Source: Mobula hypostoma (taxonomy: Eukaryota). Taken from it: DNA of 64,000 nucleotides. A program made the position numbers and the translations under genes. How positions within the stretch are numbered: position 1 is the first letter of the stretch; each line of letters begins with the position of its first letter. The notes beneath the pieces are model-generated. The model made no database searches. It was not told the DNA's origin and saw nothing but the letters and a program-made list of their open reading frames with translations. The DNA is taken from NCBI RefSeq assembly GCF_963921235.1, contig NC_086097.1, forward strand, positions 37,264,001 through 37,328,000, given 5' to 3'. Shown here piece after piece: positions 7,691 through 41,700 of this stretch.

Positions 7691-9427
7691 TCTTCACTAA
7701 ATTTAAATTTGAATTGTTCCCATGGTAGGATATGAACTGTGGACTGTCAGACCAGGTCTCTGGATTACAAGTGGGTAGGTTAACTATTGTGCTATCACAA
7801 TAACCATGATGCCACTGATATAGATCATATATTTTAAAATTTGAATATTTATTTGATTTCTTTTAATTTGAATTTGCAAATTAATGTTATTGTCATTTTC
7901 AACATTACCGACATTTTCAAGTTCAAGTTTATCGTCATGCAACCATACACATATATATGTTCAAACGAAACAACTTTCCTCCTAACCAAGGCACACAACA
8001 CAGTATATATAATTCTCACAATAACACATTGAATAATCTTATCACTAGTAAATCAATAAGATGCATTTGCAACACAAGTTAAAAAGTAAACAGAATAACA
8101 CTACTGGCACTTTCATGCATTATAAACTGGGTGGAAGCAGGGAATTCAGTAATTTTCTTTCTGCCTGATATGGCAATTTGTTTTTGCATCTCTAAGTCAA
8201 AGAGTATGTATTATTTCAAAATCTAGGAATAATAGTTTCCTGTCTTTTTGTCTCTTGAACTTGTGTGTACTTGTGCTTGTTATAGTGCAGAAGGAATTTC
8301 GGTTTTAGTTGTTTCATTATCTTCACTTCCTTATTCTGTCCAACATCATTCTCCTTCTGATTCTACTCTTTTCACATTTCCTTTCTTTGACAGTTTCACC
8401 ATGTCATAAGACCATCAGACATAGCAGCAGATTTAGGCCATTCAGCCCATTGAGCCTTCTCCACCGTTCCATGATGGCTGAAATATCCCATTTGTGCTGC
8501 TCAAAACCTTGTCCAAATGTGCGCCTCACACGCAAAACGCTAGCAGAATTCAGCAGGCGAGGCAGCGTCTATGTAGGAAAATGGACAATTGACTTTGCCG
8601 AGCACAGAAGGGTCCAATGTTCCAGAATTCCAGCAATGGCAGTATCTCTTATGTCTCCAAGTGTGAACCTCAGATTGCCAGGTAAAACCTCACCGTCGTC
8701 AAAATATTTGACCTGCATGCTGAGTTTGTTTAATGACAATCAAGAGCAGTTTCCAGCACGTTTTTATTTTATGAACTATGAGACCCATGCCCATAACTTT
8801 ATCAATGTGGCAAACTCAGGTAACTGCATACAGGTCTAGGATCAAACCTAAAATCAAGCTAATTTGTCATGCTTAGAGAGCACATCCACCTGGAAACCCC
8901 TGGATTCACCTTGCAGCTGACAAAAAAAAAGAAGGTATAGCATTGTTTTCTCTTCATACAAGGTAGGCAGCATTTGTTTCCTTTACACAGCTCAGCTAAA
9001 ACAACTGGCAGACTTGATTTCTGCCATTTAGGATGAACTGATAACCACTGAACAGAAATAATCATTTTATACTTACCCTATTTTGCTCAGATAAAAAAAT
9101 ATAGAAACATTAAAAATCTGAAATGAAAGGCAAGTAGACAGCAGATTAACCGGCCTTTGAAATTTAACACCATAACGAGGGGGACTCAGGTTCTGCGGAG
9201 TCTGGGTGAGCATGAGAAATGCTAATCCAGCTTTCCTATTCATGTGCTGGTCAATCTGATGTGCCTTTCCGGCAGTCTTTAGTTTGACATTCCTTTAAGT
9301 ATTTGCCCACACTTGGTAAAAAGAATGTGCTCCAACATTACTTCGTTTCCAAAGTAAATGGGACAGGATTAGTTTTTAACCACAGATGAATTCAATTAAT
9401 TAACCAAGATTAGACAATTTAAACACA

Positions 9428-9737
9428 GGTGCCACGGTAGCATTGCGGTTAGTGTGTTGCTAGTCCGGCTCAGGGCGTTTTGGAGTTCAGAGTTCAGAGT
9501 TCAATTCTGGCATTGTTCTGTAAGGAGGTTCTGTGTGCCCTTTTTGTGGAATTAATCAGTTTTACCCCGGGTACTCCGGTTTCCTCCCACAGTCCAAAGG
9601 TGTATCAGGTAGATTAAGTAGTCATTATAAATTGTCCCATGACTGGGTTAGGGTTAATCGGGGTTGTGGGGCTGTAGGGGCGGTGTGGCTCGAATGTCTG
9701 GAAGGGCCTACTCCATGTTGTATTGCTAAATAAATAA
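9428..9737 (+). mobile_element. V-domain SINE (HE1-like)
   Basis: tRNA-like head, V-domain core ccgggtactccggtttcctcccacagtccaaag, and (TAAA)n tail. Confidence 0.75.
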
Positions 9738-11329
9738 ATCAATCCTAAATATTCTAGCTTTCTCAGTAAGAAAAATAGGGACTAGCTCAACTGCATTGGA
9801 TCTTATCAATGTTTGTTCTTTCGTTTTAAACATCCTTAGCTATCACTAAAGATTAATCTGAAATAGCCTATTACTAAGATTGCTGTCAGTTGATGTTGAT
9901 TGATTTGGGTTTGCTCTTGCACAAACTTTTGATCTTCCAAATGTTATGTGCTGGCTTGACTACAGAACAATTGTCTGGGAATTGTCAAATGCCATTTCAT
10001 TTTATGGCAGCTGTGACTTGAACATACAATGTGGATGACAGATACAGTTTCTTTCTTTGATATTGTTAATTCAAACTGTGGTAGCTAATTATACATTGAA
10101 AGGAATCATACATTTTTCCCATCTGTCAATGTACTTAGATTGGTACAATCTCACTTTGCTTCCAGATACCTACTGGATCTAAATTATAATATGCCTCACT
10201 CACATTTTGTTTTGTTTCTACAGCCTAATTAAGAAAAAAAATCCTTAGTATTTGCTGACTTGAAATTACTTTGCCAGTTAAGATGTTACACTGTTACATC
10301 CACTTCAGAAAGTAACTGAATCTTGAATGGTGTTACTGTATACAGTACATGCACATCACTTCTTTTCTTTATAAGATGATTTTTAATTTCTTGAACCAAA
10401 GTTAAGCATCTGCTATCTATTCATTTCCTTAGACATCGCCTGACCTGCTGAGTTCCTCCAGCACCTTGTGTGTGATGCTCTGGATTTCCAGCACCTGCAG
10501 ACTTTCTCATATTTAAAATTTAAGCATTTTCCAAAAAAAGTTTGTAATTTCTATAAATAACGTGCAAAAAAAAGCACATTTTATGTTGATTTTGGTTCTT
10601 AAATATAGACAATTTCCTAACAATTAATTAGAAATGTGTCCAAATTAGATGGCTTATGACAACAAAAAACGTGGAAGAAAGGATATTTGTGATACCAATG
10701 CCATAATTTTAATTTTTAAAAAGTTATTGAATTTCATAAATGAAAACAATGGCAACATTTCAAAAGTACCTAGTTTCACCAGCAAAGCTCTTTGGGACAG
10801 TGTGATGTTTTACTGCAATTTCTTCATTTTTTAATGTCGGAGGACAGGATTTTACTTTGCAAAACATATTTTGGATGATGGAAATCTGATATAAAAGAGA
10901 AAATTATGAAAACGCAACATTACGTCAGGCAGAATCTGATTGACAAGAATCATTTCTTTGTAGATAACTAATATCTCATCAAAACTGAGATTTGAATTTG
11001 TAAGACAAATAAAATTGTAAACTTCAAAGGAAAAAACAAATAGCCTTCATATTTGCACCTTCCACCATCATGAAGTCCATGATTTTTGCAAATGTTATGT
11101 GCTGCTATCCTCTGAGGGAGAAGAAAATGAATCTCACACTCATGGAGCAAGATACTAAGATTTCCTGAAAGAAGCAGGATGTTCCAAAGTGTGAATTATT
11201 GTTAAAATTCCTGACACCTTTAGTCCTATTCTGTGGTTGTATGTGAGCCTGCAACATGTAGCGTATCTTGAAGAAGTAAAAGAAGCCAATAGGTATCAAG
11301 CATCAACCTTTACTAAGATGCATATGGCT

Positions 11330-11532
11330 GGCTGGTGGTGTAGTGGCATTTGCACCAGTCTTTGAGGTGAATGGTCCCAGATTCGAATCCGGCCGGCTCA
11401 TTGAACTCTTTCCATCTGTGCTGGATTGAGAGTCAAGCTAGCAAATCAGCCTCACAAAAAAAAACCAGACAAATGCTAAAGGAACGGCAGGGTCGCCACC
11501 CGATGCACCACAACATGTGGAGAGGAGCAAAA
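11330..11532 (+). mobile_element. tRNA-derived SINE
   Basis: A-box TGGTGTAGTGG and B-box GATTCGAATCC followed by an unrelated body. No full cloverleaf. Confidence 0.55.
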
Positions 11533-12261
11533 TAAAAGATGCATATAACTGCACCCAAAACATTCACAATGAACAGAGCCCTTTTGCCAAAGAACCCCCT
11601 GAAGGCAAACCTTCTCTTTATTGCCCCAATTAGGATTGCAACAAGAAAAATTTTAACTAGTGCCTTTACATAGTGCAGCAAAAGTCTTTGGCTAAAGTTT
11701 TTACCTCTCTTCTACCACATCTTCCTGTGGTTTTCAGAAACAGTATTGAAGTCTAAAGTACAAAGTCATTCTAAAGAACCAAGAACCCTACAAACCTGTA
11801 CCAACAAATTATAAACAAATGACGTTTCATTTAAATAACTCAAATAAATTGTAGATAAAGGAGGACTTCATTCTGCAACTAAACTTTGAGTGTTATGATA
11901 TGAGCATATTGGATTAGATGTTTTGTTGATGTCCAATTTGTCAAATCAACATCTTTCAAAGACTGGCCTGGTGATTTTCCTGCATTCATACAAACGCCTT
12001 TCACAGCATGCTAATGACATGAATCATTCAACGGTAGGTCATGTTCTCATTGCACAGCAAACCAGCACCTCTAAAACAACAATGGGTGTTCTGAATATGA
12101 ACGTATGCCCCCTGGAATGTTCAGCATCCCTAGCAATTGGTTTGTAGCATTACAGGCACAATCTTGAGAATCTACCTCATCTTTCAGTCAAATCAGTTCA
12201 GAAAAATCAAAATGAAAACTGAATAATACTAATACATGCAGAACAATTTAAAATACACAGT

Positions 12262-12901
12262 CACGAGGAAATCTGCAGGTGCTGGAATTTCAAGCAACAC
12301 ACATCAAAGTTGCTGGTGAACGCAGCAAGCCAGGCAGCATCTCTAGGAAGAGGTACAGTCGACGTTTCGGGCCGAGACCCTTCATCAGGACTAACTGAAG
12401 GAAGAGCTAGTAAGAGATTTGAAAGTGGGAGGGGGAGGGGGAGCAAAATGTGGTCGAAAAGTTGAAGAGCCGAAGAAATTACAGATGGGGAGCAGTGAGA
12501 GATGGATTCACTGAACTCCTGAAGAGAAGATTTAAACTTCTTCAGTGTAGGCATCACGGAAGAGGCTTCGCAGTAGTGAATTTAAAAACGTAAACACGAG
12601 GAATTCTGCAGATGCTGGAAATTCAAGCAACACACATCAAAGTTGCTGGTGAACGCAGCAGGCCAGGCAGCATCTCTTCGACAGGAGTTCAGTGAAACCA
12701 TCTCTCACTGCTCCCCATCTGTAATTTCTTCGGCTCTTCAACTTTTCGACCACATTTTGCTCCCCTTCCCGTTCCCACTTTCAAATCTCTTACTAGCTCT
12801 TCCTTCAGTTAGACCTGATGAAGGGTCTCGGCCTGAAACATCGACTGTACCTCTTCCTAGAGATGCTGCCTGGCCTGCTGCATTCACCAGCAACTTTTAT
12901 G
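12262..12901. mobile_element. Non-autonomous Penelope-like element with tandem + inverted arms and 13-bp TSD
   Basis: TSD TAAAATACACAGT at 12249-12261 and 12902-12914. Minus-oriented unit with period 333 nt (12262 vs 12595), then an inverted copy at about 12678-12901. Terminal sequence is shared with the PLE at 38563-40248. Confidence 0.88.
12357..12392 (-). ncRNA. Minimal type I hammerhead ribozyme motif (PLE-associated)
   Basis: AGUC-CUGAUGA-A-GGGU CUCG GCCC-GAAA-CGUC-GACU: intact core, stem I AGUC/GACU, stem II with tetraloop, palindromic ACGU stem III, GUC cleavage triplet. Confidence 0.75.
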
Positions 12902-13331
12902 TAAAATACACAGTACATGGGTAACATTTTACTATCAAATAATAAATTCTGACTCATGCCTTGCATATCTCAATAACATTTACTGAGCAGTAAACACCAT
13001 TCACAAATCACTACCTTTACAAACTATGACCTTGTTAAAATACAATTTACATAATATTGATGCAATCCTTTACATGTGCAGTTTTCTAAACATGTTTTAA
13101 ATGATTTATAGCTTCTTCCTCCATCACTATTGGAAGTAAAATGTCAGTCTGAATGCACAGGTAATATTAGACATCATACTAAATATTATCAATTGATGTC
13201 TACTGAAGGTGATAATATTTAATCACATTCAGTAGCACGGTACCTGAATATTAAGAAATATCAAACTCAATGTTTTGTTGCAATATAGAAATAGTTCATG
13301 TGGCCCATCAAATATATGCCAGACTCTAGAG

Positions 13332-15163
13332 CAGGGGATCCCAACCTTTTTCATGCAATAGAATGCCTTGGGATTAAGGTGAATCGCAAGGCATTCTATA
13401 CATACACCAAGAGAAAAGGATAACTAGGGAGAGGGTGGGACCACTCAAGGATAAAGGGGGGAACATTTGCTTGGATGCTGAGAATGTGAGTGAGGTACTT
13501 AATGAGTAGTTTGCTCCAGTATTTACCAAGGAAAAGGACATGGACGACCAGGAGATCACTGCGGGTGAGTGTATAAAAACATTAGAACATTTAGAGGTCA
13601 AGTAGGAGGAAGTGTTGGGCCTCCTAATGAGTATTAAGGTAGATAAGTCCCCAGGAACTGATGAGATTTACCCCAGGTTATTAAAGGAGTCAAGAGAAGA
13701 GATTGCTGGGCCCTTGACCAGTATCTTTGTGTCTTCTCTATTTACAGGCAAGTGGCTAATGTTTTGTCTCAATTTGAGAAGGGATCGAGAGAAAATCCTG
13801 GGAACCATAGACCAGTGAGTCATACATCAGTTGTAGAGAAATTGCTAGAGAAAATCCTTACGGATAGAATATATGTGCATTTGGAGACCCATGGCCTAAT
13901 TGGGGAGAACCAGCATGTCTTTGTGCTTAACAGTTCATGCCTTACTAACTTGATTGAGCTTTTTGACAAGGTAACGAGAGAGATTGATAAGGGTAGGGCA
14001 GTGTATGTTGTCTACATAGATTTTAGAAGGCATTTGATAAAGTCCCTCATGGGAGGCTAATCCAGAAGATTAAGATGCATGGGGAACTATGACAAATGCT
14101 GTCTGGATTCTGAACTTGCTTGTCCATAGAAGAGAGAAGACAGTGGTTGATGGGACTTATTCAAGTTGGAGGTCTGTAACTAGTGGAGTTCAGCAAGGAT
14201 CTGTGCTGGGAGCTCTGCTGTTTGTAATGTATATAAATGACTTGGATGAAAATGTAGATGGGTGGGTTAGTAAATTTCCAGATGATACCAAGATTGGTGG
14301 CATTGTGAATAGTGTAGAAGATTAGCAAAGAATACAGCATGATATAGATCAGTTGCAGATATGAGTAGAGAAATGGCAGATGGAGTTTAACCCACATAAA
14401 TGTTACATGTTGCACCTCAGTAGGGCAGACAGTATAGTGTAAAGGGCAAGTGTTGCTGAGCAGAAAGATCTTGAGATCCAGTTTCTTAGCTCCTTGAAAG
14501 TGGCTACATGGGTCAATAAATGTTTGCTTTTATTTGTTGATGCATTGAGTTGATAAATCAGGAGGTCATGATGCAACTTTATAAAACTCTGGTTAGGCCA
14601 CATCTGGAGTATTGTGTACAATTCTTGTTGGCCCACTATAGGAAGGACGTTGAGGCTTTGGAGAGGGTGCAGAAGAGGTTTACTAGGATGCTGCCTGGTT
14701 TAGGGGACATGTGCTACCATGAGAAGCTAGATAAACCTGGTTTGTTTTCTCTGGAGCGTCAGAGGCTGAGAGTAGGTTTACAAGATTATGAGAAGCATAG
14801 ATAGTGTAGACAGGGAGTATCTGTTTCCCAGGGTTGAAATGTCTAATACCAGAGGTCATGGATTGAAGTTGGGAGGGGGTAAGTTCAAGGACGATATTTA
14901 GAGAGTCATGGATGCCTGGAATGCGCTACCTGGTATGGTGGTAGAGGCAAATACATTAGAGGCTTTTAAGAGATATTTGGATAGGCATGTGGATGTAAGG
15001 AAGATGGAGGGATATGAATAGCGTTTGGGTGTTTTTGATATGCTTTTTAGCTGGTTCGGCATATTGTAAACTGAATGGTCTGCTACCAGGTTGTTCTCTT
15101 CTGTGTTCTATGTTCTAATACTATTAAGCAAAGGGTCCGTGGATCCTGGGTTGGGAACCTCTG
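13332..15163. mobile_element. ~80-bp hAT (Charlie-like) MITE split by a CR1 insertion
   Basis: 8-bp TSD CTCTAGAG (13324-13331, 15164-15171). TIRs CAGGGGATCCCAACC / GGTTGGGAACCTCTG. The two halves rejoin to match the copies at 31096 and 60304. Confidence 0.85.
13363..15115 (+). mobile_element. 5'-truncated, degenerate CR1 LINE ORF2
   Basis: KSPGTDEIYPRLLKE, SCLTNLIE, SGVQQGSVLG, KFPDDTK and [13 protein letters not shown] motifs. (TTCTATG)n tail. Confidence 0.92.
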
Positions 15164-15582
15164 CTCTAGAGTAATCCCACCAATCTCATTCCCACATTAA
15201 ATTCCCCACAACCATCCAGCCACACGGGGGCAAATTAGACAGCTGATTCACCTAACAAACAGCATGTGTACTTTGGGAAGTCAAATCCTGGTAGGACATA
15301 TATATTAAATAATAGGGACATGAGGAGCATAGATGTACAGAGGGACCTAGAGTACAAGTCCATATCTCTCTTCAAATGTGGGCAAAGCTGGATAGGTAGT
15401 AAAAAAGGCACTTGATATGCTTGTCTTCAAGGGTTGAGGCAATAAAGGTAGTGCAGGAAAGATTCACTAGGATGTTGCTTGAAATGGAGGACTATGGTTA
15501 TAAAGAGAGATGGGAAAGGCTGGATTCATCTTCAGTGGAACTTTGGAGACAGAGTGGTGACCTTGTAGAGGTTTACAGAGAC

Positions 15583-16056
15583 TGTGGCAGGAAAGCGGTG
15601 TTCTTCGTCAGGGACCCCCACTACCCAGCTCATGGTCACTTCTCGCTGCTGACAACAGAAAGAAGATACAGAAGATTCAGGAATCACACCTCAAGGCTCA
15701 GGAACAGGTATAACCCCTCAATCATGAATCAGGCTCTTGAACCAGTGGGTTAACTTCACTCAATTTCATTCGCCCCATCACTGAACTATTCCCACCTGTG
15801 GACTCACTGTCAAAGACTCCTCATTTCATGTTCTCAATATTTATTTATTTATTTATCTATCTATCTCTATATGTACTTATTTATTTATTATTTGCACAGT
15901 TTGTTGCTTTTTGCACATTGGTTGCAGTCTTTCATTGATTCTATTATGGTTCTTGGATTTACTGAGTACGCATGCAAGAAAGTGAATCTCAGGGTTGTAT
16001 ATGGTGACATTCAATATATATCCTTTGATAATAAATTTACTTTCAACTTTGAACTT
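15583..16056 (+). mobile_element. Rex1/Babar-type LINE 3' fragment inserted in an old CR1 remnant (about 15270-16360)
   Basis: RDPHYPAHGHFSLL..RRYRR.R.HTSRLRN motif. AATAAA followed by a (TTTGAAC)n tail. Confidence 0.7.
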
Positions 16057-16949
16057 TACAAAATTATGAAGGTATAGATACTCAGAATCATTTCTCCAGA
16101 GCAGGAGAATTAGAACTAGAAGGCACAGGTTTAACATGAGAAGGGCTAAGTTTTCTTTATACAGAGAGTGCTGGGTGGCCAGGAATAGGCTACCAGTGGA
16201 AGCAGATATGACAGTGGCTTTTAAGAAAGTCTTATATAGCCATATAAATATGCAGAGAATGGAAAGTTATAGATCATATTGGGGTAGAAGAGAATTAGCA
16301 TTATTTTCAGCACAGACAGTAGTCTGAACGACTGTTTCTGTTCTTCACCCTTCTCTGTTATAATAACACTGGAAATCAGAATTAAACTCATGTACCTCAA
16401 GCAGGAAGGCAGCAACAAAGACTGCTGTGCCACCATGCCGCAGAATGTGATGTGTGTTTTTTCCAGTTTGTAACAATTAAGAGTATCATGTGTTGATTTG
16501 GGATAAAGTAAACAATGCCTTAGACGGAGTGGAGACTTTTGCTCCTAATTGTTCAGCATATAAATCTTGAAATATTGGCAAAGTGTCATTACTACTCTGC
16601 TAAGCAACACCTTATAATATCTGCAGAAGCAGAGGTGATATCTGCCTGAGTTACCACCATAATGAATGTATTTAATAACTCCATGGCATTTTTTCCAAAA
16701 TGTGTCACCTCACCTACTTCATTCTTGTTCAGCTTGAACTTTCAGTGCAAATAGCAATGGGACAATTGTTTACAGATGATCCAAAAACTGATGACGTAGT
16801 TGATAGTGAGGAGGGCAATCTTTGGCTTCAGAACAATACTAATGGGTTAGTAATTTGAGCAGAGAAATGGTGGAGTTTAATCCTGAAAATAAAATGTGAG
16901 GTGATGAGTTTTGAGTGGACTAATAAACCTCGGACATACGCAGAGAATC

Positions 16950-17775
16950 TTAGCTCTCCATGATTCCCTTGTCCATTCAACTCTACTAATCTCCCTCCTA
17001 GCATTTCTCCCTGTAAAAAGAATTGCTACACCTCCTCCCTCACCTCCATTCAGGGCTCCAAACACTCCTTCCAGGTGAGGTAGCACTTCACCTGCAAATC
17101 TGTTGGGGTCACCTGCTGCATCCAGTGCTCCCGATTTGGCTTCCTCTACATTGGTGAGACCCAACGTAGATTGGGGACCCCTTTGTTGAGCACCTTTGCT
17201 CCAACCACAACGAGCAGAATTTCACAGTGGCCATTTATTTTAATACTAATCCCCATTCTCATTCCAACATATCAGTCCATGGTTTCCTCTACTGTCACAT
17301 TGAGGTTGGAAGAGCAGCACCTCATATTTCGTCTGGGTAGACTCCAACCTGATGGCTTGAACATCAATTTCTCTAACCTTCAGTAGTTTCCCCTCCCCCT
17401 TCCATCTTCTTCCATTTCACACTCTGGCTCCCCTCTTACCTCTTCTGTTCTCCTCACCCACCTGTCACCTCCTGGTGCCATTCCTCCTTCCCTTACTCCT
17501 ATAGTCCACTCTCCTTTCCTGTCAGATTTCTTCTTCTTCAGTCATTTACCTTTGCTACCTATCACCTCCTATCTTTTCACCTCATCCCCCACACACCTGG
17601 TTTCACCTATCACCTTTTAACTTGTACTCTTTGCCCTCCTTCCACCTTTTATTCCAGCTTCTTCTCCCTTCCTTTCCAGTCTTAACGAAGGGCCTCTGCC
17701 CAAAATGTAGATGGTTATTCCTTTCCATAGACACTTCTCACTGAGTTCCTCCAGCATCTTGTATCTGTTACTCTT
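16950..17775 (+). mobile_element. Degenerate Penelope-like element 3' part (GIY-YIG endonuclease + pLTR)
   Basis: Colinear with 39400-40250. [25 protein letters not shown]. Decayed hammerhead at about 17677-17712. Confidence 0.85.
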
Positions 17776-19014: not shown

Positions 19015-19825
19015 TCAGCTGCCCCTACACCTCCTCCCTCACCGCCATTCAGGGCCCTAAGCAGTTCCTCCAGGTGAGGCAGCATTTCATAGGTGAATCC
19101 ATCAATGTCATATATTGTATCCAGTGTTCCCCATTTGGTCTCATCTACATCAGTCAGATACAACTCTGATAGGGGGATTTCTCTATCTGCCACAACAGCC
19201 AGGATATCTCAGTGGCCATCCATTTTAATCCAACTTTCCTGTTCCACATTGACATGTCTGTCCGTGACTTCTGCTACTCCTTGTTGAGGCCAGGCACAGA
19301 TTGGAGGAGCTTCTGTCTTGATAGCCTCAAACATGACGGCATCAAAGTAGATTTCTCTAATGTCTGATAACAACTGCTTTTGTTTTTCCTTATCCCAATG
19401 GCTTATTGACCCCTTTACCCCTTCACTATCCCCTTCCCCAACCTCATCACCTTCACCTTCTTCCCTATGGTTTCCTGCCTCCTTTCTTATCTAATGTCCT
19501 CTCCTATCAGATTCTTTCTTCTTCAGCCTCTTCCACCCATCACGCCTCAATTTCTTAAACCATTCCATTCTTTCCCTCCCCCCACCCTCCCACTTTCACC
19601 TTCTCCTCACCTGGATTCACCTATCACCTGCCACCACATGCTCCTCACCCTCCCCCCCCCAACCCATCCTTTTATTGTAGATTCTGCTCTCTTCCTTACC
19701 AGTTCTAATGTAGGACCTTGGCCCAAAACACTGACTGGTCATAGATGCTGCCTGACCTGCTGAATTCCTCCTGCATTTTGTGTGTGTTGCTCCGGATCAG
19801 CATCTACAGTCACTCTTGAATCTCT
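19015..19825 (+). mobile_element. Degenerate Penelope-like element 3' part
   Basis: IQGPKQFLQVRQHF..VIYCIQCSPFGLIYIS is a GIY-YIG remnant. Pyrimidine-rich pLTR and agatgctgcctgacctgctga tail. Confidence 0.8.
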
Positions 19826-20699: not shown

Positions 20700-23600
20700 A
20701 AATCGAGGTTAAAAATAAATCGGGGGAAAATCCTTAACCGAAATTTATACATAAAAGAGTGCAAGGTGGGCTTGAACTAGAGATCACGACGGAAAACAAG
20801 ACGGGGAATATAAGATTAAAATATCAACGAATATGAAAGGAAATCGTCAGAATTCATGGATATATGAATCACGAAAGAAGAATGAACCGGAAGGGGGCCG
20901 TAGATAAACTTCGCAAGAAACATAAGTCCCTGGAGCCAAGTCCATCGAGCGATTTCAACTCTTTCCCGTTGGCTGAATTTGTTATTTGCTTCAGTTTCCG
21001 CTGTCTTGTTCTGATAAGAATCGTTTTCGGTTCTATCCCACTGAAAGACGCAATCCAAACCCAATCTACCATTCTCAAGGTCTTGGTGCAGGGTCTTCGC
21101 CCGAAACGTCGATCAGTCCCTCTTCCTCCACAAATGCATCTTCACCCGCTGCGGACCTCCTGCAGTTTGTGTTCTTGCTCCAGATTCCAAGCACTTGCAG
21201 TCTCTCCCCAAACCTGACACAAAATTAATCGGACCCCTTCAACGTAAACTAATTTGTCAAAGGGTCATTACTTACTTTTTACACGTATATTTATGAGTAA
21301 ATAAGAGTAAAAAAACGAAATGTTCAACCATTCCAATATGATTTACAAATTCATTCGTTCTGAGTTACACTCTTGATTTGCCTAGAGTTCGCAAAGTCCA
21401 CAATGTAATAATTAATATTAGCAAAATGTTATTATCCTTCTTAATTGAAAACAATCTTGAGTACCCATAGATTTATGGAGAAAGAGACATCCTATTAGCT
21501 ACGACTTTCTCTCCCGGAAAGTCAGGGAAATTTAATTTCAGCTGATTGACAGTTTCCATAGAAACGACCAGGTCTTAATCTGTCTGGACCCACCCTCGGG
21601 AAAATTTGACCAATCACTAGTAGAGAGGACGATCCGATCCTACAGCAGAGTAGGTCGCCGTCACGTTGAAAACACACAGATCCATCCTGGGAGATAGTCA
21701 TCTGCATGGGGGGGAAAACCTGATCGGCTAAATTTAGCCGAGAAAAGAGCGCTTTAGGGCGTAACTTGGGAGGGTGGGGGGGGGAAAGGAGAATCATGTC
21801 TTCCGCTTCCAGCGAAGTCACCAGCACACTTGAGGTTAAAGAGGAGAACGGCAGCCTGCAGCCAAAGATCAATGTATTGGGCTCTCCAGCCACTCTGGAG
21901 CCTGAAGTAAATGCACTGTCTGCAAGCCCGGAGATTACCGAGCAGGTTCCCGTTGAACTTTTAAGCAACCCCGCGTCCGCTCTGACTTTCTCCCCGGAGC
22001 AAGTGGCGTGCGTGTGCGAGGCTCTGCAGCAAGGAGGGAACCTAGATCGCTTAGCCCAGTTTCTCTGGTCTCTGCCTCCCAGCGATCTGCTACGTGGCAA
22101 CGAAAGCATCCTAAAAGCACGGGCTTTGGTGGCCTTCCACCAGCACAGATACAAAGAACTCTACAGCATTCTGGAAAGCCACAACTTCGACGCGTCGTGC
22201 CACACTTCGCTGCAGGACCTGTGGTACAAAGCCCGGTACACAGAAGCCGAGAAGGTCCGGGGCCGGCCTTTGGGGGCCGTGGACAAGTACAGACTGCGCA
22301 GGAAGTTCCCCTTGCCCCGCACCATATGGGACGGCGAGGAGAGGGTCTACTGCTTCAAGGAGAAGTCACGCAACGCGCTCAAGGAGCTGTACAAGCAGAA
22401 TCGCTACCCTTCGCCAGCAGAGAAGCGCAACTTAGCAAAGATCACGGGGCTCTCTCTCACCCAGGTCAGCAACTGGTTCAAAAACAGGCGCCAGCGGGAC
22501 CGAAACCCGTCGGAAACGCAGTCGAAAAGGTGAGGCAGCAAAACTTTCCCAACTTTTCCCAGTCAGGGGGCGCTTCCTAAATGCCACAAAATGGCGCTTA
22601 TCTTGTCCATTATTTCCTACCTCAAAGTTACAAAGGATCACGCCGAAGGATCGTTGGTGGTGTGCAGTGTGCCTCGGCACTACCCCAGTCTTTATCCCCG
22701 GCCCAGCCTGCGGGCCAGTGGGCAGTGCGGGGCCGCCACCGCTGCCTCCGAGAGGAGGGCTGCACACGAACTGTTAAGGGAAGTGTTCTGCTTAAAAAAA
22801 AGAGCAGGGAGAACAAAGAGGTCATTCGTTTGTTGTGTGTTATTCTGATTTTCTTCCTCAAAGACAGAAAGCACCGAGTGTGTGTCCACGCCGGTTATTT
22901 TGGGTGTTTTTGAAGCTGCTTTGCAGCATGGCCGGGCTCTTGGCTTTGTTTTGAAACCTGAGTCTTTCCCATTCGGCTCGAATTTCAGCCGAGTTCACTT
23001 CTCGGCAGCAAGTTTGCTGCTTATTCTTCCATCGAACTCTTCCTGCACCAACTCGCACCTCTAGGGTGCTTCTCCCTTTTCCACTGTTAGATGGGGGATT
23101 GAGCTGATTCTTATCTGTTTACCCCTTTTTTTTCTTTGGGGGTGGGTGGGTGGGGGATCTAATGCAGTGTGGCGGATTCGTTTTTCCCTGCTGCATGAAG
23201 TTGTCGAAATGCTTTTGTATTTGAGGGGTGAGTGCGCACCTGGCGGAGGTAGTGTCGAGCGACAAGTTCGAACTGTATTCTTTTCAAGTGGTGATGTAAG
23301 AAACTGCTGCTGGGCATTAGTAAAGTAAACGAGGTAAAGCACGCCTTTGTACTCGATCAGTGCAGCCTTCAGTTGTATAGGAAAAGTCAAATTCCACAAG
23401 TAAGGAACCGGGCTTCTGACTCATCACCCACTATTGTCTCCTATTTTTTATTGCTTTTTCACAAGGTACCTGGTGCTAAACAGGCACACATGGACGCTTA
23501 CGTGAATCGTCGGTACGATTTGGTAAAGAACTACTCAGTTGCAACTTTATTACGTTGTAAGACCTAAAGGTCATAGGAGTCTTTACTGAGTTGCACTGTC

Positions 23601-29700: not shown

Positions 29701-32700
29701 TTGGAAAGGTGTAGTTGAGGGTAAGATGGACCAAACTCATAACAGTCTAGTATCACTCAAATTATGATAGTCATCTTGACTAACTTGTTAGTCTTCCAGG
29801 TACCAGAATAGATTCCTGCTCTCGGCGTTAATTTTTTTTTTCATTTCTAGCTTGAGCTGTACCAATGGTGTTAGTAATAATTCAAAACAGGACGGATGTT
29901 GCATGAACTGATCCAGCAACTTTTCCAGCCCTTGAGGCATGAATAAGGGAATTTCCCCTCCTATTTGAAATTAACATTCAATTTAAAATTTTACTCCTTT
30001 ATAGCTTTTTATTTCTTTTTGTATTTCTAACCATTCTTCCCAACAAGTAGTTTTATTGATTTTTGAAATCTAAGGATAAGCATCTATTTAAGATGATCAA
30101 TTTTGTTCTTCCTTTCCCCACTCACTTTACAGGTACTTTTTCCACCTCCAAAAGAGGTTCCTAGGAATAGAGGTAAATAGTTCACTGAAAGTGGCATTAC
30201 AGGTAGACAGGTTAGTGAAGGATGTGATAGGTGCACTGGCCTTCGTCGCTCAGAGAAGTGAGTATAGGAGTTGGGTCATCGCATTGCAATTGCACAAGCC
30301 ATTGGTGAGGCTGTGCTTTGAGTGCTGTGTACAGTTTTGTGGTCACCCTGTAATAGGAAAGATGACTGTTGTCTCTCCTCTCATTGTGGAAGGAGTGGCA
30401 TCTGTCTTTCCTTTATTAGAGGGAGAGAGCGAGCCAGTGGGATGTTGAAATATTGGAGTGAACAATTAGTTTTTGATTGACTGTAGACCATGGTCTCTCT
30501 TTGGAGTCTTTGCTTTTGCTTGGGTGGTGTGAATGCTGATGTTTATACTGGAATAAGTGGGGGGTGTGGTTGATGCTGCTTGTGCATGGGAGGGAGGAGG
30601 GAGGGCTTTGGGGGCCTTACTTTTTTTCTGTCATTCACTCTTGGAGTTTTTCTTCTGTTTCGAGGATGTCTGTGAAGAGTAAGAATTTCGGGTTGTATAT
30701 TGTATACATTCTCTGATGTTAAATGGAACCATTGAAAGAGTGCAAATAATATAATGAGAATATTCTCAGGAGTCTGAGTTGCAAGGAGAGGTTAGGCAAG
30801 CGAGGGCTTTATTCCTTTGAATGTAAGAGAAAGAGGGGCAACCTTAAAGAATATATTTATGAGGGGCATAGACTGAGTGTGTGCACATAGTCTTCCCAGG
30901 GAAAGGGAATTAAAAATTAGAGGACGTAAGTATAATGTGAGATGGGAAAGAATTAAAAGAAACCTGAAGGGCAACTTCCTCACGAAGAAGATGGTGCACA
31001 TATGGAACTAACTGCTAAGGAAAGTTGTTGAGACAGGTCCAATAGCAACATGTAAAAGGCATTTGGACGAGTATATGGATAAGAATGGTTTAGAGCAGGG
31101 GTTCCCATCCTGGTATCTGTGGATCCGTCAGTTAATGGTAGGGGTCCATGACGTAAAAAAGGTTGGTAACCCTGATACAGGCTAAATGGTGGCAAATTGG
31201 ACCAGCTTTGCTGGGTATCTTGGTTGGCATGGACAAGTTGGGCGTTTGGGTCTGTTTCCATGCTGTATAATTCCAGAAAGATGGGCTTTATTTGTCACAG
31301 GTACATCGAATCACACAGTGAAATGTGTGTGATCAAATCAAATTAGAGCAGATTGTGCTCAGGGCAGCCTGCAACTTACTAACCCTAACCGAACACCTTT
31401 GCAATGTGGGAGGAAACTGGAGCACCCAGAGGAAACCCGCGCGGTCACGGTGAGAATCTATAAATGCCTTACAGGCAGCGGCAGGAATTAGACCATAAGA
31501 CCATAAGACAAAGGAGCAGAAGTAGGCCATTCGGCCCATTGAGTCTGCTCCGCCATTTTATCATGAGCTCATCCATTTTATCCTATTTAGTCTCACTGCC
31601 CCGCCTTCTCACCATAACCTTTGATGCCCTGGCTACTCAGATACCTATCAATCTCTGCTTTAAATACACCCAATGACTTGGCCTCCACTGCTGCCCATGG
31701 CAACAAATTCCATAGATTCATCACCTTCTGACTAAAAAAATTTTTTCGCATTTCTGTTCTGAAGGGGCGCCCTTCAATCCTGAAGTCATACCCTCTCGTA
31801 CTAGACTCCCCCATCATGGGAAACAACTTTGCCACATCCACTCTGTCCGTGCCTTTTAACATTCGAAATGTTTCTATGAGGTCTCCCCTCATTCTTCTAA
31901 ACTCCAAGGAATACAGTCCAAGAGCGGACAAATGTTCCTCATATGTTAACCCTCTCATTCCCGGAATCATTCTAGTGAATCTTCTCTGTACCCTGTCTAA
32001 CGTCAGCACATCCTTTCTTAAATAAGGAGACCAGAACTGCCCACAGTACTCCAAGTGAGGTCTCACCAGCGCCTTATAGAGCCTCAACATCACATCCCTG
32101 CTCCTATACTCATTCCTCTAGAAATGAATGCCAACATTGCATTCCCCTTCTTCACTACCGATTCAACCTGGAGGTTAACTTTAAGGGAATCCTGTACGAG
32201 GACTCCCAAGTCCCGTTGCATCTCAGAACTTTGAATTCTTTCCCCATTTAAATAATAGTCTGCCAAAGTGCATAACCATACACTTTCCAACATTGTACTT
32301 CATTTGCCACTTCTCTGCCCATTCTTCCAATCTATCCAAATCTCTCTGCAGACTCTCCGTTTCCTCAGCACTACTGGCCCCTCCACCTATCTTCGTATCG
32401 TCAGCAAACTTAGCCACAAAGCCATCTGTTCCATAATCCAAATCGTTGATGTGCAATGTAAAAAGAAGCGGCCCCAACACTGATCCCTGTGGAACACCAC
32501 TGGTAACCGGCAGCCAACCAGAATAGGATCCCTTTATTCCCACTCTCTGTTTCCTGCCAATCAGCCAACGCTCTATCCACGTATGTAACTTTCCTGTAAT
32601 TCCATGGGCTCTTATCTTGTTAAGCAGCCTCATGTGTGGCACCTTGTCAAAGGCCTTCTGAAAATCCAAATATACAACATCCACTGCATCTCCCTTGTCT

Positions 32701-35700: not shown

Positions 35701-38700
35701 GAGGAAAAAAATAATAAGGTAGTGCGTACGGATTTATCGTACATCAGATGGATTCATTGTCCAACTGATGGTAGAGGGGAAGAAGCTGTTCCTAAATTGG
35801 TGAGTGCATGTCTTCATGCTCCTGTACCTCCTCCTTGATGGTAGGGATGAGAAGAGGGCATGTCCCAGGTGATGGGGGTCCTTAATGGTGGAAGGCGCCT
35901 TTTTGAGGAATTGCCTTTTGAGGATGTCCTTGTTGATGGGGTGGCCTGATGGAGTTGGCTGAGTTTGCAACTCTCTATAGCTTTTTTCAATCCTTGCATC
36001 CTCTATCCCCGATGGTGATGCAACCAGTTAGAGTGTTCTCCACAGTACATCTGTAGAAGTTTGCTAGAAACTGAAATTTGTGAAAGAGACTGAAACATTT
36101 ACCTTTAGGTCCCAAGTTAAACTCCATTCCTTCTGAATCAGTTCCATCCTGCCCTTTGGATGCTGTGTGAAGAAAATTGTTAACAATCTCAATCCATTGT
36201 CTCAGCTGAGCTGAGGATCTCTTTTACCAGTCATTCCCATCGCACACTAATTTCCCTGTGACCCATTCCATCATGTATACCCATGAAAGCTACATGGTTC
36301 TTCCACTTGTCACCTTCACTAGGTGTAACACAGAAACACCAGAAGTATATATTTAGGAGAAAACTGGAAAACCCGTTTAATTAGGAACAATGTGCAAACT
36401 TCCACATAGAAAATGCAGGAGATCAGAATTCACCAGAGTTATTGAGCTGGCGAGGAAGGTACACAACTATCTTTTACCACTATATAAAAATGTACGTTCA
36501 TTTTTTTATTGATTTAGTTCTTAATTTTGCTTCTTTTTTTTTTAATCTTGACTGTATCCTTTCATTTCACATGGACAGTCAAAAACAAATGGAATGAAGT
36601 GGGAATAGAGGGAGAATGAAAAGCCTACACAAAAAAATTCAGTCACCGTTTCTAAAACTATTCACTCAGTCCTTTTATTTGTTAATACCTTTCTACTTCC
36701 AATTATTTTTATGTCAAGTTAACTACAGTACTGAAAGTAGTTTAGGAAATGAAGACATGGATGGGGGGGCCAGCAAGCAAGGGAGTTTCCCTGTAGTACT
36801 ACAGGACAATAAGACATAGAAGAAGTAGTAGGCCATTCAGCCCATTGACTCTGCTCAGCAATTCAATCATGGCAAATTTATTTTCCTTCTAAACCCCTTT
36901 CTCCTGTTCTCACCCCATAACCTTTGCCATTAAAACCTATCAACCTCTGTTGAAATATACCCAAGGACTTGGGCTCCACAGCCATCTGTGGCAACGAATT
37001 CCACAGATTCAACAAACCTGCTGGAAAAGCCTTCCTTATTTCTTTTATAAAGGGACATCCTTCTAATCTGAGGCTGTGCCCTCTCCCATCATCTCCATGT
37101 CCACACTGTCTAGGCCTTTCATATTTGGTAGGTTTCAACGAGACACCCCCCCCCCCCCCCCGCCGTTCAAGTACAGAAAGATAAAACACTCCTCATGTGT
37201 CATCCAGGGATCATTCCAGTAAATCTTCTGAATCTGTTCCAATGCCAGCACATCCTTTCCTAGATATGGGCCCAAAGCTGCTGTAATATTTTAAATGTGG
37301 TCTGACCAACGCCTTATAAAGCCTCAGCATTACATTTTTACTTTTATATTCTAATCCTCTTGAAATGAATGTTAACAGTGCATTTGCATTCCTTACTACA
37401 GACTCAACATGAAAGTTAATCTTCAGGGAGTTCCGCACTAGGACTCATAGCCTCTTTGCACCTCTGATTTCTGAACTGTATCCACATTTAGAAAGTAATT
37501 ACTACTTTATTCCTTCTACCAAAGTGCATAACCATAGACTTCCCCAGACTGCAATCCAGCTACTACTTCTTTACCCATCTCCTAATCTGTTTCAAGTTCT
37601 ACTGCAGGCCTCCTGCTTTCTCAACACTGCCTGCTCCTCCATCTTTCTTTGTATCATCCACAAACCTGGCCACAAAGCCATCAATTCTGAGATAAGAACG
37701 TAAGACATAGGAGCAGAACTAGGCCATTCAGCCCATTGAGTCAGCTTCACCATTCCATCATATCCTGAAGTTATTACCCTTGAGCTCCTTCCTTCCTAAC
37801 TCCTTGTATCCTTTTTTTCCACGACCTCCTTTTTCTACCCGTGTCGTTGGTACCAATATGTACCATGACTTCTGGCTGCTCACCCTCCCTTTTCAGGATA
37901 TTGCAGACGCGTTCAGAAACTTAATGGACCCTGACACCTGATGGGGCAAACTACCATCTGTTTTTCCTTTTCATATCCACAGAATCACCTTTGTGTCCCC
38001 CTAACTATAGAGTCCCCTATTACTGCTCCCATCCTCATCTGTTCCCTACCCTTCTGAGCCACAGGGCCGTACTCAGTGCCAGAGGCACAGCCGCCATTGC
38101 TACCCCCAGGTAGGTCACCCCCCCCCCGCCAACGGTACTCAAAATGGAGTACTTATTGCCATCAGATCATTAACATATAACATGAAAATAACTGACCCTC
38201 TCAGAACACCACTCGTCACCAGAAAGCCCGCTTTATTCCCTTTCTTTGCCTTCTACCAGTCAGCCAATCTTCTGTTCATGCTAGTACCTTCCCTGCAAAA
38301 CCATGGCCTCTTATCTTGTTTAACAGTCTCATGTGTGGCGCCTTGTCAAAGTCCTTCTGAAAGTCCATATAAACAACATTTACTGACTTTCCTTTGTCAA
38401 TCCTGTCTGTTATTTCCTCAAAGAATTCCATAAGATTTGACAGGCAAGATTTCCCCTTAAGCGAATCATACCTGATTTATCTTGCACCTCAGAGTACCCT
38501 AAAACCTCATCCTTAATAGTAGATTCCCCAAGTACCCAAAAACCTCATTCTTAAAAATGGAAACAACAGGAATTCTGCAGATGCTGGAAATTCAAGCAAC
38601 ACACATCAAAGTTGCTGGTGAACGCAGCAGGCCAGGCAGCATCTATAGGAAGAGGCGCAGTCGACGTTTCAGGCCGAGACCCTTCGTCAGGACTAACTGA

Positions 38701-41700
38701 AGGAAGAGTGAGTAAGCGATTTGAAAGCTGGAGGGGGAGGGGGAGATGCAAAATGATAGAAGAAGACAGGAGGGGGAGGGATGGAGCCGAGAGCTGGACA
38801 GGTGATAGGCAGAAGGGGATACGAGAGGATCATGGGACAGGAGGTCCCATTAACTTTGCCTCCAACTTTCACCCTGCCCTCAAGTTTACCTGGTCCATTT
38901 CCGACACCTCCCTCCCCTTTCTAGATCTTTCTGTCTCTGTCTCTGGAGACAGCTTATCCACTGATGTCTACTATAAGCCTACTGACTCTCACAGCTATCT
39001 GGACTATTCCTCTTCTCACCCTGTCTCTTGCAAAAACGCCATCCCCTTCTCGCAATTCCTCCGTCTCCGCCGCATCTGCTCTCAGGATGAGGCTTTTCAT
39101 TCTAGGACGAGGGAGATGTCTTCATTTTTTTAAAGAAAGGAGCTTCCCTTCCTCCACTATCAACTCTGCTCTTAAACGCATCTCCCCCATTTCACGTACA
39201 TCTGCTCTCACTCCATCCTCCCACCACCCCACTAGGAATAGGGTTCCCCTGGTCCTCACCTACCACCCCACCAGCCTCCGGGTCCAACATATTATTCTCC
39301 GTAACTTCCGCCACCTCCAACAGGATCCCACCACTAAGCATATCTTTCCCTCCCCCCCCTCTCTGCATTCCGCAGGGATCGCTCCCTACACAACTCCCTT
39401 GTCCATTCGTCCCCCCCATCCCTCCCCACTGATCTCCCTCCTGGCACTTATCCGTGTAAGCGGAACAGGTGCTACACATGCCCTTACACTTCCTCCCTTA
39501 CCACCATTCAGGGCCCCAAACAGTCCTTCCAGGTGAGGCATCACTTCACCTGTGAGTCGACTGGGGTGATATACTGCGTCCGGTGCTCCCAATGTGGCCT
39601 TTTATATATTGGTGAGACGCGACGCAGACTGGGAGACCGCTTTGCTGAACATCTACGCTCTGTCTGCCAGAGAAAGCAGGATCTCCCAGTGGCCACACAT
39701 TTTAATTCCACATCCCATTCCCATTCTGACATGTCTATCCACGGCCTCCTCTACTGTAAAGATGAAGCCACACTCAGGTTGGAGGAACAACACCTTATAT
39801 TCCGTATGGGTAGCCTCCAACCTGATGGCATGAACATTGACTTCTCTAACTTCCGCTAGGCCCCACCTCCCCCTCGTACCCCATCTGTTACTCTTTTTTA
39901 TGCACACATTCTTTCTCTCACTCTCCTTTTTCTCCCTCTGTCCCTCTGAATATACCTCTTGCCCATCCTCTGGGTCACCCCCCCCCCGTCTTTCTTCCCG
40001 GACCTCCTGTCCCATGATCCTCTCGTATCCCCTTCTGCCTATCACCTGTCCAGCTCTCGGCTCCATCCCTCCCCCTCCTGTCTTCTTCTATCATTTTGCA
40101 TCTCCCCCTCCCCCTCCAGCTTTCAAATCCCTTACTCACTGTTCCTTCAGTTAGTCCTGACGAAGGGTCTCGGCCTGAAACATCGACTGCGCCTCTTCCT
40201 ATAGATGCTGCCTGGCCTGCTGCGTTCACCAGCAACTTTGATGTGTGTTTCTTAAAAATGGAATCTAGTTTCTTGCCAACCACTGAAGTCAGGCTAACTG
40301 GCATATAATTTCCTGAGTTTTGCCTACACCCTCCCCCTTCTTGAAGAGTGGAGTGACATTTGCGATTTACTGCTGATACTAGTAGTAAAGAGTGAGGTGA
40401 CAAACTAAGACGCTGCAGCCCCACCATTAGTGAGAGAATGCAATTACAATGTGAGAAATTCACAGGAAGATTTTCCATTTCATCATTAATGGAATAGTTG
40501 ACATAGAACAGGGTGCCACGATAACGTGGCGGTTAACGCAATGCTTTTACATCGTTGGAGTTAAGAGTTCAATTCCGGCATCCTCTGTAAGGAGTTTGTA
40601 GATCCTTCCCTTAACCGCATAGGTTTCTTCCCACCGTCCAATGGCATGGCGGTTAGTAGGTTAATTGGTTAAATAAGTGGGTTGCTGGGCAGTGCAATTA
40701 GTTAGGCCGGAAGGACCTGTTCCATGCTGCATCTCTAAAGAAACAGTGTCATGTGACAATAGTCAATAACGTTGCAATGGGAGTATGTAAGCCTGGAAAT
40801 TTGATAACGCAGTACTGCTTTCTTTAGTAGACACCTCTGGGTCAAAGTGAAACTGTTCTGGGTTGGTTTACGTCAATCAGAAATTTGGCTGTACATCTCC
40901 CAGAACCATTTACTGCCGCATTACCTGAAGCATTGGGCGGCATGATAGTGTGACGGTTGGTGTAATGCTTTATAGCACGAGCGACCCGGGTGTAATCTGC
41001 ACTCTTTCAGGAGTTTGCATGTTCTCTCACATTCAGGTAGTAAATTGGATGAGATAATGGCAACTTGGGAGAGGCCAGAGAGTTGTAGTAGATGGTTTCC
41101 TCTCTGACTGGAGGTCCATGGCTAGTGGAGTGTTGCAGGCATCGGTGCTGGGATCTGGATGATAACGTGGTTAACTGAATCAGCAAATTTGCAGGTAGAC
41201 AGGGTCATAGAGAAAGCTTTTGGCACATTGGCCTTCATAAATCAAAATATTGAGTAAAGAAGACTAGAATGTTGAAATTGTACAAGACATTGGTGAGTTC
41301 TAATTTGGAGTATTGTGTGCATTCTTGGCCATTTACCTGCAGGAAAGATGTAAATAAGGTTGGAAGAGTACAGAGAAAATTTACAAGGATGTTGCCGGGT
41401 CTGGAGGAACTGAGTTATTAAGACTTTATCCCTTTAAACGTAGCAGATTAAGAGAAGATGTTGCAGGGACAAAGCTGAGGATGAACCCAAGTGCAGGACG
41501 CAGGCGCGGAAGCAGAGACATGAGGCGTTAGCACCGCTGCGAACGGGGAACCGGTATCCAGGAGAGTCTTTACACAGAGACAAGGTTTACGTAGAGTATC
41601 CAGGAAATGATGCGGAGCTTAGAACTAACAGTCCCAAGGAATCGGGAAACAAGGTTTACTCACATTAGAGTTGACCAACAAACTGGCAAAGCATGGCTGT

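Follow-up and report, generated by a model that had tools for sequence, protein, structure and literature searches.

A probable trans-mobilised, internally deleted Penelope-like insertion with two inverted arms in Mobula hypostoma

A 640-base insert (12262-12901), located between two exact TAAAATACACAGT copies in a 64-kb window of Mobula hypostoma DNA (the window is the whole stretch of 64,000 nucleotides that was analysed), is an old, dead copy of a Penelope-like element (PLE) in which the start of the ORF runs directly into the 3' part of the pLTR. It is likely to be a SIDE-like copy that was moved in trans and was gutted before insertion. On balance, the probable account is that of a dead, internally deleted PLE insertion, which was re-copied in trans, its linear RNA coming from a gutted source elsewhere in the genome, and which is present in low copy number. 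The features of the insert, together with a sister insertion of the parent family, are as follows.

12249..12261, plus strand: left copy of the TSD, 13 bp, AT-rich, with an exact match at 12902-12914
12262..12301, minus strand: one-sided 3' tail of about 40 nt, in the long arm only and absent from the inverted arm
12262..12443, minus strand: pLTR 3' part of the parent Penelope-like family, 182 nt, 91% identical over 188 nt to 38568-38755
12357..12392, minus strand: minimal type I hammerhead, intact (helix I of 4 bp, CUGAUGA core, one extra A, helix II of 3-4 bp, GAAA)
12438..12455, minus strand: deletion junction 12444/12443, with the 7-nt microhomology CATTTTG at a 3-nt offset
12444..12554, minus strand: ORF start, first 37 codons, assigned by protein homology, with a 3-nt deletion at about 12520
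12555..12594, minus strand: leader between pLTR tail and ORF start, assigned from the sequence
12595..12677, minus strand: upstream partial copy, the last 83 nt of the pLTR, without hammerhead
12673..12677, no strand: inversion point, 5-nt microhomology TCTCT
12678..12901, plus strand: inverted 5'-truncated arm with ORF fragment, junction (12748-12765) and decayed hammerhead (core at 12815), without tail
12902..12914, plus strand: right copy of the TSD, identical to the left 13-mer
38563..40248 (38548-40263 with TSDs), plus strand: sister insertion of the parent family, 5'-truncated, with the C-terminal part of RT, GIY-YIG, an inverted tail-bearing arm and a 15-bp TSD

The TAAAATACACAGT 13-mer is found at 12249-12261 and 12902-12914 and has no third occurrence in the window, so that the 13-bp TSD described in an earlier note on this DNA is confirmed. 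On the minus strand, the 83-nt pLTR tail (12677-12595) is followed by a 40-nt leader, 37 codons (12554-12444) and the 182-nt pLTR part ending at 12262, which is the order, with the ORF-start translation, that had been claimed. A repeat search returned a direct repeat with a start spacing of 333 nt and inverted arms at 12301-12531 and 12672-12902 that are 94% complementary. Thus the 333-nt period of the earlier note stands as a spacing, but the upstream copy consists of the last 83 nt only, without a hammerhead, and the tandem therefore amounts to just 1.25 units. The 5' end of this upstream copy lies 16 nt past the predicted hammerhead cut. The long arm (416 nt) and the inverted arm (224 nt) are joined head to head; the latter corresponds to about positions 73-293 of the unit and differs from it by 10 substitutions and a 3-nt gap in 226 aligned bases. 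The three bases missing from the unit at about 12520 are present in the inverted arm and in other contigs of the family. The divergence between the arms since insertion is 4.4%, and one of the two hammerheads has decayed. The GC content of the 333-nt unit is 0.47. Among the contigs of runs X1 and X2, the consensus of the loose ends at 12262 ends in leader-like letters, with an agreement of only 0.46. The unit had been described as non-coding; a frame across the junction is in fact open for 97 codons to the unit end, but it has no Pfam match and no homologue beyond residue 37, and it is taken as incidental.

The junction is the most informative part of the insert. Its 18-nt word occurs exactly twice, once per arm (12438-12455 on the minus strand and 12748-12765 on the plus strand), as the earlier note had it, while shuffled sequences gave a mean of 0.05 occurrences and none of 100 reached two. 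The last 7 nt of the 5' part recur 3 nt before the landing site in the parent pLTR, and in the sister copy none of 1340 other positions matches as well, indicating that the junction was guided by microhomology with a 3-nt slip and is not a splice. A spliced origin of the deletion was set aside, since the parent sequence leading up to the landing site ends in CAT (sister) or GAT (loose-end consensus) and offers no AG within reach. The protein homology of the ORF start ends exactly at the junction; in the long pieces that cover the 5' part, the match is lost at 12444 (X1 record 7; X9 record 24 has a further 74 letters), and contigs of the pLTR family diverge into the parent sequence at 12443 (239 contigs in X2 and 29 in X9). 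Since the junction is present in both arms and the arms end at the two usual 3' ends of the family, the template RNA was likely already without its middle part, in agreement with the earlier proposal of a template deleted before or during insertion.

The 37 codons were aligned with the first 38 residues of a 478-aa Hemiscyllium protein, P0018 (XP_060689572.1), with 26 of the 38 identical (68%) and an E-value of 1.2e-4 in a protein library search; the single gap in this alignment corresponds to the three bases that are missing in the unit and kept by the inverted arm. Judged by sequence, these 37 codons open a longer, conserved ORF, and this N-terminus is inferred, from its position behind the pLTR tail, to belong to the RT/EN ORF. 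An index-free protein search with the ORF start returned two proteins, P0017 and P0018, the former being discarded as a repetitive match. Word-index protein searches with residues 1-40 (longer proteins) and with residues 1-55 (proteins of 53-170 aa, a weak test) returned no relatives. P0018 has no Pfam match, and an Atlas look-up of its residues 1-165 gave only HEAT/CLASP-like entries (0.87-0.91) with low shared counts, which were set aside. This protein is annotated as 'mucin-2-like', which is likely a misnomer for a model derived from a retroelement; several gene models of Hypanus and Mobula (P0004, P0005 and P0013) likewise contain the RT/EN of the parent PLE under host gene names.

The parent family is represented in the window by the sister insertion, whose pLTR is 89-91% identical to that of the gutted copy. 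A GIY-YIG domain was detected at its C-terminus with an E-value of 2.5e-4 and 21.7 bits, just below the cut-off of 22.6, and the frame encoding the endonuclease shares 92% of its residues with a Mobula protein and 75-84% with Hypanus proteins; homologues of this frame that reach further towards full length include the RT region. The earlier description of a PLE-derived unit that has lost the interior of its ORF is upheld, the unit consisting of the pLTR of an abundant GIY-YIG Penelope family and of an ORF start. The inverted arms of the sister are 98% alike (3 differences in 249), and by this measure the sister insertion is younger than the gutted copy. Other relatives in the window are a fold-back insertion (35190-35367), which consists of two decayed pLTR ends from a related subfamily with arms 9 nt apart at the centre, and decayed pLTR copies of related subfamilies (34138-34928, 19431-19809, 21080-21200 and 10425-10515), which are 67-81% identical to the unit and have damaged or absent hammerheads.

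The two arms may be explained by the way in which PLEs are inserted. The Poseidon protein of the anole is reported to cut and extend both strands at AT-rich DNA, and to use two internal start sites of reverse transcription, whose spacing gives a tail of 30-40 bp (PMC11167929). In the insert described here, the short arm stops at about unit position 293, as do the majority of the family contigs, and the long arm runs about 40 nt further; the summed depth of these contigs in X1 is 2.1M, 9.0M and 24M over three bins covering 12258-12311. The two arm ends match the two start sites described in PMC11167929. The tail of the sister is found on its short arm and is missing from its long arm; neither arm is contained in the other, and two separately primed cDNAs were therefore needed at its insertion. 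Two separately primed cDNAs are the simplest account of the gutted copy too, and, as the same slipped junction is found in both arms, the RNA likely carried the junction. At the gutted locus, where the long arm encompasses all of the inverted arm and a 5-nt microhomology is found at the inversion point, fold-back is possible as well, and self-priming has been proposed for inverted pLTRs (PMC3846280).

The age of the copy is indicated by its left end. A contig of X2 (organism B, possibly the source of the window itself and thus not independent) covers 12060-12290 without a difference, and a contig of X1 (organism A) covers 12060-12287 to its last base with 7 differences, 26 of its bases being inside the insert. 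The left insertion end is thus common to two differently labelled organisms that are about 2-3% apart, in line with the 4.4% between the arms; hence the copy is old and fixed and is not a sign of current activity.

As to copy number, no other locus with the junction was found within the 64-kb window. In X1 and X2, contig depth over the pLTR part exceeds that over the ORF start by a factor of 64-74, and the ORF start itself is still far above the single-copy flank: in X1, its summed depth, which is not a copy number, is 4e4-5e5 versus 30 in the flank. Just before the junction, the depth on the ORF side is 0.47, 0.57 and 0.66 of that of the next bin, compared with 0.69 for the case that no copy spans it, and the junction is not crossed by any of the 24 pieces (aligned contigs) that are listed, a further 179,110 being outside the listing. 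Of 84 joints, among which the reference's own junction cannot appear, 15 are listed, and in eight of these, from X1, X2 and X9, the hammerhead edge (12380-12394) is connected at other points to the ORF start (12481-12526); each has a summed depth of at most 111 in 1-3 contigs, which is about that of a single locus, and six have unknown letters between the two parts. This suggests that other gutted copies with different junctions arise repeatedly and stay rare, and the junction studied here is likely present at only a few loci, although the depth argument for this is weak, since contig alignment favours contigs resembling the reference. Shares of words in the runs (0.34-0.72) do not separate junction words from those of the parent. 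A 19-nt ORF-start word gave 10 matches in metagenome contigs, none extending past 19-31 bases, and all 10 were regarded as chance-like.

The hammerhead of the unit, the core of which lies at 12388 on the minus strand, is intact as the earlier note had stated, but the copy in the inverted arm has decayed, with changes in helices I and II and in the palindrome that stands for helix III. A palindromic ACGU replaces helix III in the unit, and cleavage is predicted after GUC (12361/12360). By inspection, the motif shows all four features given in PMC4209133 for minimal PLE hammerheads, namely a short helix I, an extra base after position 9, the G10.1-C11.1 pair and the palindromic 15.2-16.2; its helix II, of 3-4 bp, is shorter than that of 7-8 bp in Schistosoma (PMC4209133). 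No hammerhead was detected by an Rfam search of the region 9000-17000 with E-values up to 5, which returned five chance-level matches. The circular monomer is predicted to fold with -64.3 kcal/mol, 50% of its bases paired and a z-score of -1.1 versus 100 shuffles, and the hammerhead helices are absent from its best predicted fold; for the linear 416-nt RNA, the z-score is -1.2 and the predicted pair probabilities are 0.00 for helix I and 0.045 for helix II. The hammerhead is read as a passenger from the parent pLTR. The 16 nt that separate the predicted cut from the 5' end of the long arm would suit a cleaved template, but also an ordinary truncation, and were not counted as evidence. A strong pile of loose ends is located at the 5' edge of helix I (12391-12392; 903 contigs in X1, 1095 in X2 and 70 in X9 at 12392), which may be either a truncation hot spot or the point where other subfamilies diverge.

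The two tail copies bear on the form of the template. The tail of the unit differs from the upstream tail at 4 of 83 sites, and the identity to the tail of the sister insertion is 77/78 for the upstream tail and 73/78 for the unit tail. At 12288, the letter of the unit makes up 47%, 40% and 22% of the summed depth in X1, X2 and X9 (all three informative runs), shares that are inflated because contig alignment favours contigs resembling the reference, although the letter is still plainly common. The difference at 12328 is found at 0.1-1.8% in the family and was read as a later mutation; at 12271 no change is listed in X2 and X9, and the unit letters at 12279 and 12271 recur in more distant copies of the window (two of them for 12279). 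From these letters, the two tails look like pre-existing variants of the family, placed on a linear template or on two RNAs, an argument that is firm at one site, 12288, and that for 12271 depends on the absence of a listed change. As 1.25 turns of a circle would give identical tails, the presence of two variants argues against rolling-circle copying.

The probable account would comprise the following events. A template jump or repair at the 7-nt microhomology may have joined codon 37 to the pLTR, with the loss of RT and endonuclease, and this jump may have joined two different variants of the family. The gutted copy would have kept the pLTR signals, its transcript consisting of the upstream tail, leader, ORF start, pLTR and tail. 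The protein of an intact element, to judge from PMC11167929 and from the sister, would then have nicked both strands of an AT-rich site 13 bp apart, where two cDNAs were presumably primed at the long and the short start sites, both copying the junction. These cDNAs would have stopped after 416 and 224 nt and been joined head to head at the 5-nt microhomology, as is seen in the insert, and the arms would afterwards have drifted 4.4% apart with the decay of one hammerhead, as is also seen.

A dispersed non-autonomous family, that is, a Penelope counterpart of the R2 SIDEs with tens to hundreds of loci spread by the parent protein, seems unlikely. The deletion was, to judge from both arms, likely borne by the template, a minority of minis could hide in an ORF-start region so far above single-copy depth, and pLTRs suffice for mobilisation in trans (PMC3846280); however, there is no other copy in 64 kb, the depth profile fits most ORF-start copies not crossing the junction, the other junctions present are each at low depth, the upstream and downstream tails are not homogenised, and no translated relative of residues 1-55 was found among proteins of 53-170 aa (weak). 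Similarly doubtful is the proposal that the locus is the founder of a dispersed SIDE-like Penelope family of rays, one tandem step from a retrozyme, with one RNA templating both arms. It is improbable, too, that the deletion was a single event during insertion, with a jump of RT out of the pLTR to codon 37, followed by fold-back priming that copied the inverted arm from this first cDNA. The microhomologies at the deletion (7 nt) and at the inversion point (5 nt), the containment of the inverted arm in the long arm and the many different low-depth joints of ORF start and hammerhead in the family would agree with such an event, and the two tail variants would follow from a jump between two RNAs; yet a fold-back copy would have no reason to stop at the short 3' end of the family, where the arm does stop, and fold-back cannot explain the sister, with its tailed short arm and tailless long arm.

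The earlier note had raised a retrozyme-like unit whose tandem transcripts may self-cleave to ~333-nt monomers; in a non-LTR retrozyme, such monomers would be circularised and copied by rolling-circle reverse transcription. The unit falls in the 170-400-nt range (PMC7229834) and is close to the 363-bp mean of one chondrichthyan (bioRxiv 10.64898/2026.07.22.740005), there is a more-than-unit copy with an intact core, and circular PLE templates have been proposed (PMC4209133). The insert has, however, only one complete sense hammerhead, short of the two units asked for in bioRxiv 10.64898/2026.07.22.740005, and the locus therefore cannot release a monomer. The motif is moreover of the minimal PLE type, the predicted circular monomer is half paired at a z-score of -1.1 without forming the hammerhead helices, and the tails look like two family variants in place of identical copies. 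In published work, single minimal hammerheads did not cleave and dimers did so poorly (PMC4209133), the anole hammerhead needed protein and was dispensable for TPRT (PMC11167929), and eight of nine Xenopus dimers were not cleaved (bioRxiv 10.64898/2026.07.22.740005). Self-cleavage to monomers or circles is accordingly not supported, the retrozyme reading being very improbable; in its working the locus is SIDE-like and, on the features tested, not a retrozyme.

As it stands, the insert is a tidy fossil of known PLE behaviour. The insertion architecture of EN+ PLEs is standard (PMC8557442, PMC8969392), and like EN+ Penelope/Poseidon insertions the insert has a partial tandem pLTR, an inverted 5'-truncated copy and a 30-40-bp tail at one end (PMC8557442, PMC11167929, PMC3846280), an AT-rich target with TSD and a hammerhead in the pLTR. 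It differs from those described in that the ORF is nearly gone, with 37 codons left, and in that the junction in both arms dates the deletion relative to the insertion. Among the traits of EN+ PLEs, the partial tandem, the inverted arm with one-end tail and the minimal hammerhead are found in the insert itself, and the RT/GIY-YIG parent is seen via the sister only. PMC3846280 already describes a PLE copy whose pLTRs are inverted and which has a TSD and an internal deletion mediated by microhomology, as well as mobilisation in trans by pLTRs. Like the R2 SIDEs, the insert conjoins the 5' and 3' ends of a ribozyme-bearing retroelement, leaving cis signals for use in trans (PMC3414825): the ends are conjoined at 12444/12443 and both 3' ends of the family are used. 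R2 SIDEs are propagating copies at a fixed rDNA site (PMC3414825) with an HDV-like ribozyme (PMC6765202), whereas the parent here is a PLE with a minimal hammerhead. Non-autonomous PLEs are known from Chlamydomonas (PMC8557442); these Chlamys elements, such as MRC1, are also non-coding PLE derivatives with pLTRs and 3' similarity to autonomous families, but they belong to a green-algal, permuted-domain clade, are mostly without canonical hammerheads, often form head-to-tail multicopy arrays and are demonstrably active.

With metazoan non-LTR retrozymes the insert has in common a length of about 330 nt, a type I hammerhead, a large TSD and kinship with a PLE pLTR, and its size features (333 nt, within 170-400; GC 0.47, below 50%; TSD of 13 bp, above 4 bp) are those of a retrozyme. 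Retrozymes as described in PMC7229834 are tandem units, each with a complete and mostly canonical hammerhead, and give self-paired circRNAs, whereas the insert has 1.25 units, weak self-pairing and an inverted arm. At least two complete units and a self-paired monomer (by prediction) are not found at the locus, nor is the canonical loop 1-loop 2 hammerhead of PMC7229834, the unit hammerhead being without a helix III loop. A link between PLEs and retrozymes, which the earlier note had put forward, is already argued in bioRxiv 10.64898/2026.07.22.740005, with one chondrichthyan genome in the sample: retrozymes, which were found in that genome as well, are derived there from PLE pLTRs by local amplification of the pLTR, in contrast to the internal deletion keeping the ORF start that is seen here, and cleavage was seen in one of nine dimers. 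The PLE origin of retrozymes has so far been argued from co-occurrence and pLTR trees. No internally deleted non-autonomous PLE family from sharks or rays was found in a literature search, with Repbase and most subscription papers outside its scope. The presence of a rare junction in both arms means that the two cDNAs of an inverted PLE insertion likely came from the same or sibling RNAs, a point of relevance to the unsettled question whether inverted pLTRs arise from two primed cDNAs or by fold-back. Should the junction be multi-copy, vertebrate PLEs would have a counterpart of the R2 SIDEs and the derivation of retrozymes from PLEs would gain a concrete intermediate, and if the locus were a family founder, a route from PLE to retrozyme by internal deletion would be caught in the act.

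About 9 kb downstream of the gutted element is the first SIX-like frame of the window (21724-22533). This frame and that at 49054-49953 are presumably exons of a SIX-family homeobox gene (SIX4/SIX5-like). An element with 15-bp terminal inverted repeats and an 8-bp TSD (CTCTAGAG), apparently interrupted by a LINE fragment, occupies 13324-15171; we take it to be hAT-like and the interrupting fragment to be a CR1-like LINE. The stretches 42350-45449 and 31593-33869 are presumably the remains of a Gypsy-like LTR element and of a CR1-like LINE, respectively.
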